Shown here piece by piece: positions 1-7,110 of a stretch of DNA of 7,344 bases (its first letter is position 1; each line of letters opens with the position of its first letter). The position numbers and the translations under genes are program-made. The stretch is from IMG/VR virus record IMGVR_UViG_2703718843_000005; one strand, given 5' to 3'. The notes under the pieces were generated by a model. It saw only the letters and a program-made list of their open reading frames with translations. It was not told the origin of the DNA and made no database searches. This stretch comes from a virus. Its lineage: Duplodnaviria > Heunggongvirae > Uroviricota > Caudoviricetes.

Positions 1-184
1 GATTCCCGGGGCGGTTCAGTTCTTTATTAGTGGAAGAATCCGGACCGTACTTCTTTATCCAGGCATAAAGGCTGTGGGTGGTGATATCGAGACGTGTTGC
101 AACGCTGGCAACAGAATAACCGCGATCAACAACCTGTTTGACTGCTTCAGTTTTAAACTCTTCGGGATAACGCTTACCGCTCAT
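1..184 (-). CDS. IS3-family transposase OrfA, N-terminal fragment (helix-turn-helix region); partial and possibly interrupted after codon 55
   Basis: Minus-strand ATG at 184-182 translates to MSGKRYPEEFKTEAVKQVVDRGYSVASVATRLDITTHSLYAWIKKYGPDSSTNKE..., which I recognise as an IS3-family OrfA N-terminus. No stop inside the window, so it is absent from the ORF track. Confidence 0.6.
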   Translation of the reverse strand, partial: MSGKRYPEEFKTEAVKQVVDRGYSVASVATRLDITTHSLYAWIKKYGPDSSTNKELNRPGN

Positions 185-247
185 GGGCACCTCTCTTTAA
201 GCCATCTTAAATGACTCTGAGGTGTCTGTTAAACCCGTGGCGATTCA
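1..247 (-). mobile_element. IS3-family insertion sequence terminal portion (partial, runs off the left edge); element end at nt 247, with a second IS3-type terminus-like sequence at nt 1-18
   Basis: Read on the - strand from 247: TGAATCGCCACGGGTTTAAC..., a TG-initiated IS3-type terminal repeat, followed 64 nt later by an orfA-like start. Reverse complement of nt 1-18 is TGAACCGCCCCGGGAATC, resembling the canonical IS3-family terminus as I recall it. Confidence 0.6.
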
Positions 248-577
248 GTTTAAATCTGCATTCAGTCTGTCATTGGTATTTGCTTTCGCCGCTACGTTGC
301 AGAAAAGCTGACTGGGGTAGATGAAGTAGCCTTTAGTTTTGATGGCATCGTCTTTAATGTCATCAGTAATTACGCTGTCATCCAGTTTCGCATAACAGAT
401 ACTGTCATCACCGGCTTCAATATAGCTGGAAAAATTTTCGCTGATAAAACGGTAGAAAAGTGCGCCCAGAACGTATTGCTTAAAATCCCATCCATCGACC
501 GAACCCCTGACATCGTTAGCAATTTGCCAGATTTGACGATGAAGCTCTGCACGTTGTTGAATACTTGTCATTTTCAT
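245..577 (-). pseudogene. hsdM: Type I restriction-modification methyltransferase HsdM (EcoR124-like, type IC), N-terminal 110 codons only, truncated by the IS insertion
   Basis: Translation MKMTSIQQRAELHRQIWQIANDVRGSVDGWDFKQYVLGALFYRFISENF... matches my recollection of the EcoR124-family HsdM N-terminus. Full HsdM is over 500 aa; here the stop (TGA, nt 247-245 on the - strand) is supplied by the first three bases of the IS terminus. The SAM-binding and catalytic motifs are absent. Confidence 0.75.
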
Positions 578-716
578 CCACTTATTTCAGGCTTATGTAA
601 TTGGATGTGATTCTACAGCAACTTGGATGCTTTAGCAGTTCGGACATTAGGCTACGAATGACCTGCCTAGAGGTTTGTTAAGCCGCAAAGTGCTGGTGCT
701 TTATGCCTGTGAAGTT

Positions 717-747: not shown

Positions 748-753
748 GTGTTT

Positions 754-975
754 ATGCAATCCATTAACTTCCGTACCGCGCGCGGCAACCTTTCTGAAGT
801 GCTCAACAATGTTGAAGCCGGGGAAGAGGTTGAAATCACCCGCAGAGGCCGTGAGCCAGCAGTAATTGTCAGCAAGGCTACTTTCGAAGCCTACAAAAAA
901 GCGGCGCTGGATGCTGAATTTGCATCCCTGTTTGACACCCTGGACTCCACCAACAAGGAACTGGTTAACCGATAA
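754..975 (+). CDS. phd: Phd antitoxin (prevent-host-death), 73 aa
   Basis: [73 protein letters not shown] matches P1 Phd as I recall it. ATG at 754 is preferred over the ORF-track GTG at 748 because GAGG sits at correct spacing. Stop overlaps the doc start (TAATG). Confidence 0.93.
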
Positions 976-1355
976 TGAGGCATATATCACCGGAAGAACT
1001 TATTGCGCTTCATGATGCGAATATAAGCCGCTACGGCGGCCTGCCGGGAATGTCAGATCCGGGCAGGGCAGAGGCCATTATCGGGAGAGTCCAGGCCAGA
1101 GTTGTGTACGAAGAGATCACCGACCTTTTCGAAGTCTCCGCCACCTACCTGGTGGCTACTGCGAGAGGGCATATATTCAATGATGCCAATAAGCGTACCG
1201 CGCTAAACAGTGCGCTGTTATTTCTACGCCGTAACGGGGTGCAGGTATTTGATTCACCTGAACTGGCAGACCTTACTGTAGGCGCTGCGACCGGAGAGAT
1301 ATCTGTATCTTCTGTCGCCGACACGTTACGTAGATTGTATGGTTCCGCGGAGTAG
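975..1355 (+). CDS. doc: Doc toxin (death-on-curing; Fic-fold kinase that phosphorylates EF-Tu), 126 aa
   Basis: 126-aa product with the Fic-type motif HIFNDANKR (encoded about nt 1170-1200), located immediately downstream of phd with a 1-nt start/stop overlap; matches P1 Doc from memory. Confidence 0.93.
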
Positions 1356-1359
1356 ATTA

Positions 1360-1539
1360 ATGGCACGTAAATACAACAAATTGTCCCGTGAAGCGTTAAA
1401 GATGCTTCTTGATGGCGTGAGTCGCCGCGAGGTAAAGCAATACCTGGTTGGTAAGCAAATTGGAGCCAGGACTGCTATTGCTGTGTTATGCCGTCAGGAA
1501 ATGGTTGTGCTTAAACAGAGAATGCCGGGCAGCAGATAA
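1360..1539 (+). CDS. pdcA: PdcA (post-doc protein A), small basic protein of unknown function, about 59 aa
   Basis: Position directly after doc as in P1. The ORF track starts at 1339, overlapping the doc 3-prime end; ATG at 1360 is preferred because GGAG at 1347-1350 gives proper RBS spacing. The start is uncertain. Confidence 0.6.
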   Translation: MARKYNKLSREALKMLLDGVSRREVKQYLVGKQIGARTAIAVLCRQEMVVLKQRMPGSR

Positions 1540-1566: not shown

Positions 1567-2610
1567 GTGAAAGCCGTAATTACTCCCTTTGTACAAAAAG
1601 AGCTTGGCGTCGCCACATTCAAAGTGGATCAGGAAGTCAGAAAACTGGTGGAGGCTGGCCGTAAATTTATTATGGAGCCGGTGCCGCGTGAGTTAATCGA
1701 GCACATGGACGACGGCCTCGTTGTTTCCGAGCAAACTATGGCAACAAATGAGGCGTTGCAGCCGTTTTTTAACAGCGATGAACTGTTTCGCCGTATTGGT
1801 GGAATTGACGCGCTGGTGGCGTGGTTGCGCAGGAAAGAGGGGCAATGCCAGGCCGCAGATCGTAGCTGGTGTGACAACCATATTGTCCACGCAGAACGAG
1901 ACAATAGCGCGGTGTTGTTGTGCTGGCATCACGATAACCATTACCGGATGCGTGGTTTTAATGAGCTGAAAGAAACGCTGCATAATAATCGCGTTAACTG
2001 GATACTGGATGTCGCCCGTCAGGAAATGGGGCTTTCAGATGGCCATGATTTAAGTATTCAGGAACTGTGCTGGTGGGCTTTCATGCGCGACATGATGCAC
2101 CTGATGCCGGAAGAAGTCTGCCGTATATCAATAAATAAGATTAAGGCTGCAACGCAGGATAGCGGACCTATGAAAGAGGCGGATATTCGCCCGTATGACG
2201 ATCGCGCTACAGCATATGTTCAGATGATGGAAGAACGCGCCGCGCCGATGCGTGCAAAAGTATGCCCTGTGGATGTTGACTCCGACCCTGGCATGGCGCA
2301 TTTCAAAATACCAAAACTGCAATCGCTAAAATTACCCGAGTACATGGACTTTGTTGCTTCCCGTCCGTGCTGTGGATGTGGAGCTGCGGGAGCTGGCGCT
2401 CGCATTACGCCTTATATCGTTCGTCATAGTCGATTATGCGCGCATGACATTTACGCAATTCCTCTGTGCCAGTCATGCCAGCGTGATATTGAGCGTGACC
2501 GCGATAATTGGGAGAAGACGCACGGCAGGCTGGCGATGCATCAACGATTGTTCTTTGATTACGCGCTTGGAGTCGGCGTTATCACAAGTCACTCGTCGAG
2601 CGTTAGATAA
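1567..2610 (+). CDS. pdcB: PdcB (post-doc protein B), 347 aa, function unknown; contains two Cys/His-rich clusters
   Basis: GTG start at 1567 with AAAGG RBS upstream. Long uninterrupted ORF in the P1 pdcB position. Cys/His clusters are encoded at about nt 1846-1941 and 2368-2478. Confidence 0.7.
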
Positions 2611-2611
2611 A

Positions 2612-2628
2612 GTTGCTCTAATGTATTG
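2612..2628 (+). promoter_or_regulatory. C1 repressor operator-like site upstream of lpa
   Basis: GTTGCTCTAATGTATTG matches the asymmetric P1 C1 operator consensus ATTGCTCTAATAAATTT at 13 of 17 positions, with a perfect 10-bp core TTGCTCTAAT. Lpa expression is known to be C1-repressed in P1. Confidence 0.6.
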
Positions 2629-2656
2629 CTATTTCTTTAATCGATGGTATTATATT
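2627..2656 (+). promoter_or_regulatory. Candidate sigma70 promoter for lpa overlapping the C1 operator
   Basis: TTGCTA (2627-2632) and a TATTAT/TATATT-rich -10 region (2648-2656), about 45 bp upstream of the lpa start; the spacer length is approximate. Confidence 0.4.
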
Positions 2657-2698: not shown

Positions 2699-3151
2699 AT
2701 GTTACTTAACTGGCAGGGACGCCACTTCATGGAAATAAATCACTCACGAATTACATCGTATGAGATTGCGGATTACATGATCCGCACTAAATCTCTTCTA
2801 TCAGCGAAAGAACTCGCAGCAATCCTTGAAAAGGAATACCCGCATCTGGATGTCGATAAGCGCGATGTTTATCTGCGCTTAAAGGCTATCGCTGTGTCTA
2901 AGTATTCGTCTGTTTTGATTGATGACAGTACACGCCCACGTAGATTTCAGATCCACTCTCTGAATCCTGAATTCTTTCGCCGTAGCCGCGCTCCGCGCCG
3001 GTTTGATGAAAAACTCCAGAACGAACTCTATATGACGCAGGACGAAAAGGAACGCCGGGAGCACCAGCCTTGGGTAATGGCGCGTCAACTTTTCAATAAG
3101 GTGGCCCGTCAGCACCGTCATTACGGTAATGCCACATCCGCACGTATCTGA
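2699..3151 (+). CDS. lpa: Lpa, late promoter activator (P1 gene 10 product), 150 aa
   Basis: 150-aa ORF in the canonical position between pdcB and pacA; AGGTGA RBS 7 nt upstream of ATG 2699; preceded by a C1 operator-like site. Confidence 0.85.
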   Translation: MLLNWQGRHFMEINHSRITSYEIADYMIRTKSLLSAKELAAILEKEYPHLDVDKRDVYLRLKAIAVSKYSSVLIDDSTRPRRFQIHSLNPEFFRRSRAPRRFDEKLQNELYMTQDEKERREHQPWVMARQLFNKVARQHRHYGNATSARI

Positions 3152-3236: not shown

Positions 3237-4430
3237 GTGACCTGGGACGATCACAAGAAGAATTTTGCTCGCCTGGCGCGAGATGGTGGTTACACCATCG
3301 CACAGTATGCCGCCGAGTTTAATCTTAACCCTAATACCGCACGTCGTTATCTCCGTGCCTTCAAAGAAGACACCAGGACAGCGGACAGCCGCAAGCCAAA
3401 TAAGCCTGTCAGGAAACCACTAAAAAGCATGATCATTGATCACGCTAATGATCAACGTGCAGGTGATCACATTGCGGCTGAAATAGCGGAAAAACAAAGA
3501 GTTAATGCCGTTGTCAGTGCCGCAGTCGAGAATGCGAAGCGCCAAAATAAGCGCATAAATGATCGTTCAGATGATCATGACGTGATCACCCGCGCCCACC
3601 TGACCTTACGTGATCGCCTGGAACGCGACACCCTGGATGATGATGGTGAACGCTTTGAATTCGAAGCTGGCGATTACCTGATAGATAACGTTGAAGCGCG
3701 GAAGGCCGCGCGCGCTATGTTGCGTCGGTCCGGGGCCGATGTTCTGGAAACCACTCTTCTGGAAAAGTCTCTTTCTCATCTCCTTATGCTGGAGAACGCC
3801 AGGGATACGTGTATTCGCTTGGTGCAGGAAATGCGCGATCAGCAAAAAGACGATGATGAAGGTACTCCGCCTGAATACCGTATCGCGAGCATGCTAAACA
3901 GCTGTTCCGCGCAGATAAGCAGCCTGATCAACACCATTTACAGCATCCGGAATAACTATCGAAAAGAAAGCCGGGAGGCGGAAAAGCACGCTTTATCTAT
4001 GGGGCAAGCTGGCATTGTTAAGCTGGCATACGAACGAAAGCGTGAAAATAACTGGTCAGTGCTGGAAGCGGCTGAATTCATCGAGGCGCATGGAGGAAAA
4101 GTGCCGCCCCTGATGCTGGAGCAAATCAAAGCCGATCTGCGTGCTCCTAAGACCAATACCGATGATGAGGAAAACCAAACAGCATCTGGCGCTCCATCAC
4201 TTGAAGATCTGGATAAAATCGCGCGAGAACGGGCCGCCAGCCGCCGCGCTGATGCGGCATTGTGGATTGAGCATCGTAGAGAAGAAATTGCCGATATCGT
4301 CGATACAGGTGGTTATGGTGATGTCGATGCGGAAGGCATATCAAACGAAGCATGGCTTGAACAGGATCTGGACGAAGACGAGGAGGAAGACGAAGAAGTT
4401 ACCCGCAAACTGTACGGGGATGATGATTAA
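3237..4430 (+). CDS. pacA: PacA, terminase small (pac-recognition) subunit, 397 aa
   Basis: GTG start with AAAGGA RBS; 397 aa; contains the hexamer-repeat pac site internally; strongly acidic C-terminal tail ([11 protein letters not shown]); stop overlaps the pacB start (TAATG). Confidence 0.9.
3430..3588 (+). other. pac site: phage P1-type packaging cleavage site with Dam-methylatable hexamer repeats
   Basis: Four TGATCA hexamers at 3430-3435, 3437-3442, 3449-3454 and 3464-3469, then three TGATC(G/A) hexamers at 3560-3565, 3572-3577 and 3583-3588 (a further TGATCG at 3611-3616). Each contains GATC. This is the known 4 + 3 arrangement of P1 pac inside pacA. Confidence 0.85.
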
Positions 4431-5914
4431 TGGCCAGAAGTTGCGTAACGGACCCACGTTGGCGCGAGCTGGTGGCGCTATATCGTTATGACTGGATTGC
4501 GGCCGCTGATGTGTTGTTTGGGAAGACACCAACCTGGCAGCAGGATGAGATCATTGAGTCCACGCAGCAGGACGGCAGTTGGACAAGTGTGACCTCCGGC
4601 CATGGTACTGGTAAATCGGATATGACGAGTATCATTGCAATACTCTTCATCATGTTTTTCCCCGGCGCTCGCGTCATTCTGGTCGCTAACAAAAGACAGC
4701 AAGTCCTTGATGGTATTTTCAAATACATAAAGAGCAATTGGGCTACTGCTGTTAGCAGATTCCCGTGGTTGTCGAAGTATTTCATTCTTACAGAAACGTC
4801 TTTTTTTGAGGTGACTGGCAAGGGTGTTTGGACAATATTGATAAAGTCCTGTCGCCCCGGAAATGAGGAGGCGTTGGCTGGTGAACACGCCGATCATCTC
4901 TTGTATATCATCGACGAAGCGTCGGGTGTGAGTGATAAAGCATTCAGTGTGATAACAGGTGCGCTGACCGGTAAGGATAACCGTATTCTGCTTCTTTCCC
5001 AGCCTACGCGACCTTCAGGCTATTTCTACGATTCACACCACAGACTAGCTATTCGCCCGGGAAATCCTGATGGATTGTTTACTGCGATAATACTGAATAG
5101 TGAAGAATCTCCGCTTGTAGATGCAAAATTTATACGAGCAAAACTTGCGGAGTATGGCGGTCGTGATAACCCCATGTACATGATCAAAGTACGTGGTGAA
5201 TTTCCCAAATCTCAAGATGGCTTTCTTCTTGGTCGTGATGAGGTTGAGCGGGCGACGCGGCGAAAGGTCAAGATTGCCAAAGGATGGGGCTGGGTTGCAT
5301 GTGTTGACGTTGCTGGTGGCACAGGACGAGATAAGTCCGTTATTAATATCATGATGGTGTCCGGCCAGCGAAATAAACGCCGTGTAATCAACTATCGTAT
5401 GCTGGAATACACAGACGTTACAGAAACGCAGTTAGCCGCCAAGATTTTCGCAGAATGTAACCCAGAACGGTTCCCGAACATAACCATAGCTATTGATGGC
5501 GATGGCTTGGGGAAATCGACGGCTGATCTAATGTACGAACGCTATGGCATTACCGTCCAGCGTATCCGCTGGGGTAAAAAGATGCACAGCCGTGAAGATA
5601 AAAGCCTTTATTTCGATATGCGCGCTTTCGCGAATATTCAGGCGGCAGAAGCTGTAAAATCAGGGCGTATGAGGCTTGATAAGGGGGCTGCGACTATAGA
5701 GGAAGCATCAAAGATACCGGTAGGGATAAATTCCGCAGGTCAATGGAAGGTGATGTCAAAGGAAGATATGAAGAAAAAACTCAACCTGCACTCACCGGAC
5801 CATTGGGATACATATTGTTTCGCTATGTTGGCGAACTATGTTCCCCAAGATGAAGTGCTTAGCGTCGAAGACGAAGCGCAGGTTGATGAAGCTCTGGCAT
5901 GGCTTAATGAATAA
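4430..5914 (+). CDS. pacB: PacB, terminase large subunit (ATPase/nuclease), 494 aa
   Basis: 494-aa ORF with Walker A-like SGHGTGKS (about nt 4592-4615) and Walker B-like [10 protein letters not shown]; translationally coupled to pacA. Confidence 0.9.
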
Positions 5915-5938: not shown

Positions 5939-6790
5939 CTATTGCGCGCTTTCGGGGTTGTCGTTTACTGGCTGCCCCTTCTTAGTTTTGCGCCTGCGCG
6001 TAACTGATGCGGCTGATTTGACCTTTTTCTCTTCGCGAGTGATGGCAATTTGTTTTTTTACATTTTCAATATCTGCCAGGCGATATATTTTTGCCTGCGG
6101 CCAGCGGTCGCAGATGATCGGTTCTATAGAGTCATAAAGGCTAAATTTTGCTTTCTCAAATTCACCGTTGATGATGATTCCATCTCGGAGAGTTTCATCG
6201 CAGATAAACACGCCACATAGCGGCACATGGTAACTAACTGATTTGCCATCATTGTAGTTAGGGCTACTGGAAATGTAATGGACGCGCAGCATTGTTTCGC
6301 TAAAGCCGTGTACGCGCATACGGAATTTTTCATCCTCCGGGTACTGCTTCATTAGCTCTTTTGTTGCTTCCAGGTTCTCTATGTATTTCGCACTGTGCTC
6401 ATTGATCCCCGCGCTTTTTTGGATGCGAATGTCCTTATCAATCAGATGAATAATGCGGCCAGCGGTCATGTTGACGCTGTTCACAGCTTCTGTCTGATAA
6501 GTTGTAACCTTGCGCACACCGCGAAGGATGTTAGGCACTGGATATAAAATAGTCTTTGGGATATTGAGGTCTGGGTACTGTTCCAGTTCCCGCGCCATTA
6601 AAGTCCATTTATCAATTTCAGCCTGAATGCTGTCAGTTTCTTTGAACGGTAGAACGACAACCGGGCGTACAGGACGACCGTCGCTGGCTGTATCAACGTG
6701 TTGGGCGCGTGCAACAGCTTTTTTTAGAAAGAGATCCCTGAAGCTGACGAACTCCTGGTACAGTTGTTCGCCGTAGACATAATTTATCAT
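5939..6790 (-). CDS. c1: C1 repressor of lysogeny (P1 immC), 283 aa
   Basis: 283-aa product beginning MINYVYGEQLYQEFVSFRDLF..., matching P1 C1 from memory; strong RBS GGAGGAGG upstream on the - strand; convergent with pacB across a 24-bp gap. Confidence 0.9.
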   Translation of the reverse strand: MINYVYGEQLYQEFVSFRDLFLKKAVARAQHVDTASDGRPVRPVVVLPFKETDSIQAEIDKWTLMARELEQYPDLNIPKTILYPVPNILRGVRKVTTYQTEAVNSVNMTAGRIIHLIDKDIRIQKSAGINEHSAKYIENLEATKELMKQYPEDEKFRMRVHGFSETMLRVHYISSSPNYNDGKSVSYHVPLCGVFICDETLRDGIIINGEFEKAKFSLYDSIEPIICDRWPQAKIYRLADIENVKKQIAITREEKKVKSAASVTRRRKTKKGQPVNDNPESAQ

Positions 6791-6884: not shown

Positions 6885-6901
6885 AGATTTATTAGTGCAT
6901 T
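6885..6901 (-). promoter_or_regulatory. C1 operator-like site between coi and c1 (autoregulatory Op99-type region)
   Basis: Minus-strand AATGCACTAATAAATCT matches ATTGCTCTAATAAATTT at 14 of 17 positions. P1 c1 is known to be preceded by a cluster of C1 operators. Confidence 0.5.
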
Positions 6902-7110
6902 TATTGTGAGTCTAACTGGTTAGTTGCCATGAGATATTCGATTGTGTCAGTGAGGTCATCCAGGTCGTCTTGGGTGATGCGGTACTCCTGATTGGATATC
7001 TTTGAGTAGTGTTCAGCAATGGCGCGGGCTGCGTCGGTTTCGGCAGGGTCTACAGATAAAGCGTTAGAGCAATGTCTAACGTCGTCGATGGTTGGTTGAA
7101 TGAAAGCCAT
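6901..7110 (-). CDS. coi: Coi, C1 inactivator protein, 69 aa
   Basis: 69-aa ORF MAFIQPTIDDVRHCSNALSVDPAETDAARAIAEHYSKISNQEYRITQDDLDDLTDTIEYLMATNQLDSQ immediately upstream of c1 on the same strand, with GAGG RBS; matches P1 Coi from memory. Confidence 0.85.
   Translation of the reverse strand: MAFIQPTIDDVRHCSNALSVDPAETDAARAIAEHYSKISNQEYRITQDDLDDLTDTIEYLMATNQLDSQ
7057..7073 (-). promoter_or_regulatory. C1 operator-like sequence inside the 5-prime part of coi (candidate only)
   Basis: Minus-strand ATTGCTCTAACGCTTTA: perfect 10-bp core ATTGCTCTAA, 12 of 17 matches to consensus overall; lies within coi codons 13-18. Confidence 0.3.

Follow-up and report, generated by a model that had tools for sequence, protein, structure and literature searches.

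Does the product of pdcB, a gene of P1-like phage-plasmids that several databases name an HNH endonuclease, still cut DNA? The gene lies in a 7344-bp stretch of DNA (IMGVR_UViG_2703718843_000005; the whole stretch is called the window hereafter). It is a segment of a P1-like phage-plasmid, which from position ~672 onward is collinear with P1 (AF234172 87970-94521) and shows 98% DNA identity to both P1 and P7. Elements of this type spread resistance genes in Enterobacteriaceae, and the function of PdcB has been unknown since the genome paper of 2004. Judging from the alignments described below, the P1 lineage has none of the canonical catalytic residues in the C-terminal finger of this protein family. 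We lean, with modest confidence, towards P1 PdcB being a catalytically inactivated nuclease kept as a zinc-dependent DNA-binding accessory protein. The new elements are the recognition of the P1 protein as a putatively degenerate variant and of a second, so far unannotated His-Me-like domain predicted in the family.

PdcB belongs to a catalogued protein family

Residues 161-337 of PdcB matched the whole 171-position model of Pfam DUF968 (PF06147) with an E-value of 5.8e-49 and 166.8 bits against a gathering cut-off of 27.8. The full-length protein (residues 1-340) matched PHROG 96, 'HNH endonuclease', with an E-value of 1.3e-127. The RefSeq records of P1, P7, SJ46, RCS47 and D6 likewise label the gene 'HNH endonuclease'; the original GenBank record reads 'unknown protein function'. 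NCBIfam profiles gave no meaningful match to PdcB and the PADLOC defence models gave none. The membership of PdcB in the YdfU/DUF968 family is already catalogued, hence not new. DUF968 was assigned in 2017 to group 7 in the superfamily of His-Me fingers together with DUF1364, and a role in recombination/repair like that of NinG and Ref was proposed for the DUF968 group (PMC5714182). Earlier work had already described the C-terminus of DUF968 proteins as carrying an HNH motif of the zinc-finger type (PMC4118853). Literature searches on pdcB, DUF968 and ydfU found no functional or biochemical study. A previous description of this locus made from the DNA alone (the sequence-only reading) stated that pdcB had no assigned function in the P1 literature; this holds for the experimental P1 literature, which still gives the function as unknown, but PHROG 96, RefSeq and DUF968 already classify the family.

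PdcB of the window is 96% identical to P1 PdcB at the protein level. Its start call is sound, because an AAAGG Shine-Dalgarno sequence lies 6-7 nt upstream of the GTG codon and the N-terminus is conserved in all homologues. The gene and the parts of its product are as follows, where pLDDT stands for the predicted local distance difference test score of the structural model:

1567-2610, plus strand: pdcB, GTG start, 347 amino acids (aa) plus stop (open reading frame translation and P1 annotation)
1567-1734, plus strand: conserved N-terminal segment, residues 1-56; two short strands, pLDDT 38-66; motif M-[KR]-A-[VIL]-[IL]-T-P…G family-wide
1735-2151, plus strand: N-terminal structural domain, residues 57-195; predicted His-Me-finger-like beta-beta-alpha zinc module packed on helices, including the ELCWW helix
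1846-1941, plus strand: first Cys/His cluster, residues 94-125; predicted zinc ligands C94, C102, C119 and H122, with the conserved W120, D123 and N124
2152-2328, plus strand: low-confidence linker, residues 196-254; pLDDT 40-49, one predicted helix at 212-229
2329-2586, plus strand: C-terminal YbcO/Ref-like His-Me finger domain, residues 255-340; apparently catalytically degenerate in the P1 clade
2368-2481, plus strand: second Cys/His cluster, residues 268-305; predicted zinc ligands C268, C271, C301 and C304, with H293-D294 kept
2491-2493, plus strand: codon of E309, which replaces the family His just beyond the second-cluster span

Conserved residues point to two zinc sites

The protein contains 12 Cys and 15 His in its 347 residues, and Cys and His together make up eight of 32 residues in the first cluster and eight of 37 in the second. 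The first reads C94-x7-C102-DNH105-IVH108…LLC119-W-H121-H122-DNH125, and the second C268-C269-G-C271-G…Y283-IVR-H287-SRL-C291-A-H293-D294…PLC301-QS-C304-Q305. Both had been described in the sequence-only reading, and every residue quoted there was found at its position in the translation.

Homologues were collected by two indexed searches and one exhaustive profile search, which returned 806 cluster representatives at E ≤ 1e-3, of which 55 reached E ≤ 1e-30. They comprised the P1 clade (63-100% identity), the intermediates P0020/D6-like (37%) and P0056 (36%), and many full-length YdfU-like proteins (20-33%). Conservation was counted in 82 intact full-length proteins, 14 of the P1 clade and 68 others (the relatives), down to ~20% identity.

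In the first cluster, C119 was kept in all 82 proteins and C94 in 81. Position 102 was C or H in 81/82, being C in the P1 clade and H in 38 and C in 29 of the others, and position 122 was H (67) or C (15) throughout. The pairs found at positions 102/122 in the relatives were C/H (29), H/H (24) and H/C (14). Q95, W120, D123 and N124 (N in 57, H in 11 of 82) were conserved as well, and H121, H122, D123, N124 and H125 were invariant in the P1 clade. In the second cluster C268 and D294 were present in 82/82, C301 in 74 and C271 in 70, and position 304 was C or H in 64 and D/E in 11; H293-D294 and P299 were also conserved. H105 (K/N/E elsewhere), H108 (Y/R/T elsewhere) and H287 (N in 10 of the 14 P1-clade proteins, G in relatives), which the sequence-only reading had highlighted, were not conserved and appear incidental. 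C269 was conserved only in part, and C291 was invariant solely in the P1 clade, with Lys in relatives.

The clusters are more than a chance accumulation, because a subset of their residues is conserved across the 82 homologues. Two invariant Cys next to exactly two positions at which Cys and His replace each other are the hallmark of a zinc site with four ligands. The Cys/His residues upheld by the alignment fall into two four-residue sets, C94, C/H102, C119, H/C122 and C268, C271, C301, C/H304, which we take for two candidate zinc sites; fold matches to zinc-containing HNH domains suggest that the ligands converge on zinc. The ELCWW motif (residues 166-170; window 2062-2076) is among the most conserved parts of the family (W170 in 76/82, L167 in 73, W169 in 70, E166 in 69, C168 in 62), and its C168 is not required for a four-ligand site.

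Both clusters are predicted to form HNH-like modules

A full-length AlphaFold2 model built from a 40-sequence alignment had a mean pLDDT of 69.8 and a predicted template modelling score (pTM) of 0.47. It was confident for residues 60-190 (pLDDT ~85-94) and 255-340 (72-92), separated by the low-confidence linker, whose length varies among relatives with insertions of up to ~25 residues. The first cluster was modelled as a hairpin of strands 106-111 and 114-119 followed by helix 120-129, and the second as a hairpin of strands 280-284 and 297-301 followed by helix 302-310. In each, two ligands are predicted ahead of strand 1 and two at the junction of strand 2 and the helix, the zinc-knuckle arrangement that flanks many HNH cores. 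The guess that the clusters resemble HNH or treble-clef modules was thus borne out at the level of the model, in which both are a beta-hairpin plus helix, the C-terminal one lying inside DUF968. The 'similar spacing' noted for the two clusters would reflect a common fold topology, but not detectable sequence homology, as hhalign gave a probability of 0.8% between the N-cluster and C-cluster profiles. An internal duplication, considered as a candidate origin, was rejected on the same comparison for want of sequence evidence.

Fold matches of the full-length model included Ref and YbcO, then EcoKMcrA, IscB, Cap5, TagI, ScoMcrA, GVE2 HNH and Cas9 HNH. Residues 57-195 modelled alone had a pLDDT of 91.5 and a pTM of 0.85, and the nine best matches in the fold search with this domain were all HNH proteins. 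The scores were 5.4 for IscB, 4.9 for ScoMcrA, 4.4 for both EcoKMcrA and engineered IscB, 4.0 for Cap5, Ref, Hpy99I and GVE2 HNH, and 3.9 for the type I-E HNH Cascade; YbcO, outside these nine, scored 3.2. The search with the isolated domain attributes the high Ref and YbcO scores of the full-length model to the C-terminal domain. Pfam lets DUF968 begin with the ELCWW helix, which in the model is packed against the N-terminal domain. No Pfam model matched the N-terminal domain; sequence searches of PDB chains found nothing with PdcB or with the full-length family profile, and nothing meaningful with the N-cluster profile. On the evidence of the fold search, the N-terminal domain would be a second, more divergent His-Me-like module, previously unannotated in the family.

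Canonical catalytic residues are missing from the P1 clade

The catalytic site of His-Me fingers rests on a His in strand 1 and an Asn or His at the start of the helix (PMC5714182). In the distant relatives the C-terminal motif is very regular, C-x2-C-G-x2-ADDPHH-IIGHGQGGMxTKAHDLFTIPLCR-x-[CHDE]-H-x-E-L-H. None of the canonical residues H283, H284, K291, H305 and H309 was found in any of the 14 P1-clade proteins:

Position 283: His in 66/68 relatives; Tyr in 13 and Phe in 1 of the 14 P1-clade proteins
Position 284: His in 66/68 relatives; Leu/Met/Ile in the P1 clade
Position 291: Lys in 65/68 relatives; Cys in 14/14 of the P1 clade
Position 305: His in 64/68 relatives; Gln in 14/14 of the P1 clade
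Position 309: His in 64/68 relatives; Ala/Glu/Ser/Val in the P1 clade

The window protein has Y283, I284, C291, Q305 and E309. The clade motif reads TPY[ILM]V…LCAHD…C-x2-C-Q-x3-[AES], where the relatives have DPHH…GxGxGGMxTKAHD…C-x2-[CH]-H-x3-H, and the GHGQG loop is 5 residues shorter in the P1 clade. The replacement of His by Gln at position 305 affects the metal-ligand position at the start of the C-domain helix. No substitute His was conserved within residues 272-292 or 302-318 of the P1-clade alignment, so that the missing active site is not a matter of how precisely the sequences were aligned. Pfam HNHc_6 was matched by the canonical relatives and not by PdcB or P0020, and the C-terminal sites of D6/P0020 and P0056 are degenerate too.

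Strand 1 of the N-terminal module carries no conserved His in any lineage, H108 being H/Y/R in the clade and T/L/I in relatives. D123 and N124, in the first turn of the helix, might suit the metal-ligand position, but with the strand-1 His absent the site is incomplete. Where a group has neither the strand-1 His nor a Tyr in its stead, its members are taken to bind DNA without being nucleases, as in the example of Smad MH1 (PMC5714182). The 'nuclease-like' interpretation of the sequence-only reading is weakened by these findings, the catalytic His and metal-ligand His of PdcB's own family being found in 0/14 P1-clade proteins against 64-66/68 relatives. As far as the residues tell, 'HNH endonuclease' is probably an over-annotation, or misnomer, for P1 PdcB.

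Selection was assessed by pairwise Nei-Gojobori estimates among seven P1-clade genes, with synonymous divergence (dS) ranging from 0.13 to saturation. The ratio of nonsynonymous to synonymous divergence (dN/dS) was 0.09-0.15 over the whole gene, 0.075-0.09 in the C-terminal domain and 0.15-0.28 in the N-terminal segment (residues 1-56). These seven genes are all intact and of equal length. Hence pdcB is under strong purifying selection and is not decaying, and the low dN/dS of intact genes indicates that the remodelled C-terminal domain is functional in some way.

Is P1 PdcB an active or an inactive nuclease?

Several points weigh against an inactive P1 PdcB. Both halves of the argument, activity in the relatives and inactivity in P1, are read from sequence. 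The mutual placement of the two domains is not fixed by the full-length model with its pTM of 0.47. H293-D294 is retained in the P1 clade, and the clade-invariant C291, Q305, H125 and CWHHDNH might make up a second metal site or a catalytic site of a non-canonical type. Tyr283 was considered as a PacI-like nucleophile and rejected, as this position is Phe in P0007 of the P1 clade and in P0056.

The main rival is that PdcB is an active HNH endonuclease with a non-canonical site, made for example of H293/D294 with Q305 or of CWHHDNH across the domain interface. We regard it as unlikely. The RefSeq and PHROG names agree with it, as does a predicted fold closest to active nucleases, P1 Ref and other HNH proteins. 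So do the invariance of H293 and D294 in the P1 clade (D294 in all 82 homologues), the clade-invariant stretch H121-H125, the N or H at position 124 in 68 of 82 proteins, in the first helix turn where His-Me fingers hold a metal ligand, and the strong purifying selection. It has to contend, however, with the replacement of five near-invariant canonical residues in every P1-clade protein and with the lack of a conserved His in strand 1 of either module. The superfamily survey equates loss of the His with loss of nuclease activity unless a Tyr substitutes (PMC5714182), and Tyr283 fails in P0007 and P0056. Moreover, PdcB falls below HNHc_6 detection, which its canonical relatives reach.

Under the favoured reading of an inactivated nuclease, PdcB would consist of two zinc-stabilised beta-beta-alpha modules joined by a flexible linker, the N-terminal one (57-195) non-catalytic family-wide and the C-terminal one (255-340) YbcO/Ref-like. 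Distant relatives with a complete HNH site would presumably be nucleases acting on recombination or replication intermediates; that they may be active recombination/repair nucleases was proposed before (PMC5714182). In the lineage leading to P1-type phage-plasmids the active site would have been dismantled and the zinc ligands retained. PdcB would have lost the one-metal mechanism with which canonical HNH enzymes cut DNA, and would be kept as a DNA-binding, probably DNA-structure-binding, protein, expressed from an operon that ends at the lpa promoter.

A more specific version, to which we assign a low probability, is that a nin nuclease has turned into a double 'dead HNH' zinc-finger protein. 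In it C291, Q305, H125 and CWHHDNH would form a new metal or ligand site, and the protein would attach to branched or damaged DNA but leave it uncut. If true, PdcB might shield plasmid-prophage intermediates from host nucleases or from P1 Ref, or tune the C1/Lpa switch. In PdcB, a nuclease fold of a bacterial virus may have been exapted for a role other than catalysis. The scope is modest: laboratory growth does not require the gene, and the fold is that of a well-known family. The result is a small, testable correction and opens no major question.

Comparison with known His-Me finger proteins

The YdfU-type proteins of the DUF968 family, among them YdfU of the E. coli Qin prophage, align collinearly with PdcB over the full length (~330-355 aa) at 20-33% identity. 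YdfU-type proteins and PdcB share the N-terminal CQ…C/H…LCWH[HC]DN module, the ELCWW helix, a variable linker and a C-terminal CxxC…HD…PLCxxC zinc finger. They differ in the C-terminal motif [PA]-H-H…K-x-H-D…C-x2-[CHDE]-H-x3-H of the YdfU type, of which PdcB keeps only H293, D294 and the Cys. They differ also in location, the phage-plasmid gene lying upstream of lpa and the YdfU-type genes upstream of Q in the lambdoid nin region.

YbcO of the DLP12 prophage (DUF1364, PDB 3g27) was the top PDB match of the C-domain profile of the canonical relatives, a weak one (E-value 0.05) and not obtained from PdcB itself; it aligned in the register CxxC / H / K-x-x-D / C-x2-C-H-D-E. In YbcO, a single domain of 96 residues, the His of strand 1 and the metal ligand of C-x2-C-H are both present; PdcB has neither and possesses an extra N-terminal domain and linker. 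P1 Ref, a RecA-dependent HNH nuclease (PDB 3plw, Pfam RecA_dep_nuc) encoded by the same phage as PdcB, aligned with its residues 93-145 to the canonical YdfU C-domain profile (E-value 5e-5), in the region CxxC…LHHI…PLCRWHH. Ref keeps the catalytic His-His and the helix His, which PdcB has lost, and is under C1 control at Oref. A long insertion in the finger loop and a basic, disordered N-terminus set it further apart (PMC5714182).

Lambda Rap/NinG and the other nin-region recombination nucleases occupy the same niche as the canonical YdfU relatives, between the replication genes and Q and next to RusA. P1 PdcB, in contrast to the NinG type, is encoded outside a nin region and appears to have no active site. 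Smad MH1, a His-Me finger fold without the catalytic His that was retained under selection, is the published precedent for exaptation to DNA binding (PMC5714182); it is eukaryotic, unrelated to PdcB in sequence and of other architecture.

pdcB belongs to the lpa-pacAB backbone

The genes and sites of the window that surround pdcB are:

245-577, minus strand: HsdM N-terminal fragment (Pfam HsdM_N, E-value 6e-11)
748-975, plus strand: phd (open reading frame list, P1 annotation)
975-1355, plus strand: doc (open reading frame list, P1 annotation)
1339-1539, plus strand: pdcA, 66-aa open reading frame; PHROG 3345 (59 aa) matches residues 8-66
2612-2653, plus strand: Olpa (C1 operator) and Plpa (sigma-70 promoter), from P1 annotation (offset +177) and a promoter scan (TTGCTA-16-TATTAT at 2626-2653)
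2699-3151, plus strand: lpa, encoding the late promoter activator; always the next gene after pdcB in P1-clade elements
3237-4430, plus strand: pacA (open reading frame list, P1 annotation)
4430-5914, plus strand: pacB (open reading frame list, P1 annotation)
5939-6790, minus strand: c1 (open reading frame list, P1 annotation)
6901-7110, minus strand: coi (open reading frame list, P1 annotation)

The placement of pdcB between phd-doc-pdcA (748-1539) and lpa, given in the sequence-only reading, is as mapped here. Seven P1-clade loci were read: those of the window, P1, JK004, L007, L008, L009 and L010. The order pdcB-lpa-pacA-pacB-c1 was constant in all of them. A BPP1_LPA gene lay directly downstream of pdcB in L004, L007, L008, L009 and L010, the lpa of JK004 being judged by gene size; on L004 it is a 37%-identity pdcB relative that is likewise followed by the Lpa homologue. 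Of these loci, only the window, P1 and L009 have the upstream cassette phd-doc-pdcA. Unrelated small genes stand in its place in L007, L008 and L010, and JK004 apparently is without it too. Evolutionarily, pdcB is part of the conserved lpa-pacAB backbone and not of the phd-doc cassette behind its name. A link to the toxin-antitoxin pair, drawn earlier from adjacency, proved circumstantial, as the cassette is missing in three or four of the seven loci where pdcB-lpa-pacA-pacB is kept.

That PdcB is part of the phd-doc module, or a co-expressed anti-defence or host-takeover effector of the kind suggested in the sequence-only reading, is in our view highly improbable, and membership of the module is largely refuted by synteny. 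The genes share their orientation, pdcA overlaps or abuts doc, and a terminator scan from doc to pdcB found nothing beyond chance expectation. This null result neither shows nor excludes co-transcription, and transcription of pdcB from Pphd is plausible in the window element. IncF plasmids, too, carry phd-doc-pdcA together with the beginning of pdcB. Their pdcB, however, is only a truncated relic: some 400 IncF-type plasmid records have the order hsdM - phd - doc - pdcA followed by an unannotated pdcB remnant of the first 114 codons, which implies that the toxin-antitoxin module works without pdcB. On L012 (NZ_CP054237.1) the remnant (2501-2842, 81.6% identity) ends beside an hsdR fragment and IS5. 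A P1-like element was apparently the source of the cassette, which took a pdcB stub along. The persistence of pdcB-lpa-pacAB where phd-doc-pdcA is missing, the lack of a PADLOC match and the stable pdcB::kan lysogens described below also speak against this alternative. As a whole, the sequence-only reading keeps its observation of the clusters and its HNH/treble-clef guess, but loses several of its highlighted His and the toxin-antitoxin link, which looks like an accident of cassette insertion.

Published phenotypes bear on the remaining alternatives. CRISPR interference (CRISPRi) with pdcB in P1 gave efficiencies of plating of 0.68 and 0.26, and the gene was scored non-essential, whereas plating fell below 1e-7 for lpa, pacA and pacB, scored essential (PMC10695390). 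A pdcB::kan P1 is recoverable and makes stable lysogens (PMC10067587, PMC10999674), and pdcB is among the genes conserved across P1-like phage-plasmids (PMC9603915). In laboratory hosts P1 can do without PdcB in both lytic growth and lysogeny. A packaging or lytic role is contradicted by the knock-down and the viable insertion if that role is meant as essential.

As a version of the nuclease-dead reading, PdcB might be a zinc-finger protein that regulates or assists the late switch or packaging by binding DNA or a protein partner in the adjacent lpa/pac region, for example acting with Lpa, with C1 at Olpa or in pac recognition. We consider this improbable. The constant gene order in every P1-clade locus examined agrees with it, as does the position beside lpa even in the 37%-identity relative on L004. 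The stop codon of pdcB immediately precedes Olpa and Plpa, at the end of the pdcB transcription unit and the start of the C1-controlled lpa unit. Canonical relatives stand directly upstream of the Q late antiterminator, and Smad MH1 offers the precedent of a dead His-Me finger serving as a transcription factor (PMC5714182). Knock-down or insertion of pdcB, however, had no clear effect on plating or lysogeny, while lpa, pacA and pacB are essential. The pdcB homologue of D6 does not adjoin lpa (and is distant from phd-doc), and the site upstream of Q is the usual one for nin-region recombination genes.

HK97 gp74 is a terminase-associated HNH endonuclease needed for packaging. A PdcB of this type would agree with the HNH-like fold and with the location of pdcB two genes upstream of pacA/pacB, yet we find it scarcely credible. 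It is at odds with the contrast between non-essential pdcB and essential pacA/pacB (PMC10695390), with the presence of lpa and C1-controlled Plpa between pdcB and pacA, and with the cutting of P1 pac by PacA/PacB (P1 annotation). The apparent loss of the catalytic residues and the location of relatives in nin regions, far from terminase genes, argue against it as well.

Origin of the gene and side observations

In lambdoid prophages and phages the canonical relatives of PdcB lie in the nin region; a Yersinia locus has the order MT-A70 methylase - RusA - KilA-N - DUF968 - Q antiterminator, and RusA and Q are annotated neighbours in many phage records. In D6 (L005, NC_050154.1, 3210-4996) the pdcB homologue directly follows a ppp-like metallophosphoesterase, which we take to be the counterpart of lambda NinI. 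This phosphatase-pdcB pairing is reminiscent of the lambdoid nin order and supports a nin-region origin of pdcB.

N-terminal YdfU parts (the first 160-300 residues) fused to tail-tip (GpJ), tail-fibre, collar or portal domains were met in P0086, P0132, P0135, P0069 and P0095. They were rejected as probable prophage-decay chimeras or mis-assemblies, because the partners are unrelated structural proteins and DUF968 is truncated at variable points.

Homologues of pdcA are 59 aa long on L009 (3794-3973) and on IncF plasmids (L012, 2294-2473), as in PHROG 3345, and pdcA of the window probably starts at Met8 (nt 1360) to give 59 aa rather than a 66-aa product overlapping doc. No Pfam match was found for pdcA. 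It accompanies phd-doc in every case (window, P1, L009, IncF plasmids) and is missing from the P1-clade loci without phd-doc, which indicates that it is part of the mobile addiction cassette and not the partner of pdcB.

Relatives without phd-doc carry other cargo upstream of pdcB, namely DUF6884 proteins (L007 2984-3745, L008 2518-2961), and L008 encodes at 17-664 a Macro-domain protein that could be an ADP-ribose-related anti-defence or defence gene. The pdcB remnant of IncF plasmids seems to be a trace of the transfer of the P1 addiction cassette to F-type plasmids, or of a transfer the other way.

The left end of the window (1-672) is unlike P1, where humD precedes phd; the N-terminal part of HsdM, on the opposite strand, is found instead. 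The HsdM reading frame has only 110 aa in the open reading frame list, and either truncation or continuation in a form that the list did not capture would account for it. The same arrangement of HsdM next to phd occurs on IncF plasmids and in the phages vB_EcoM-673R5 and phi456.

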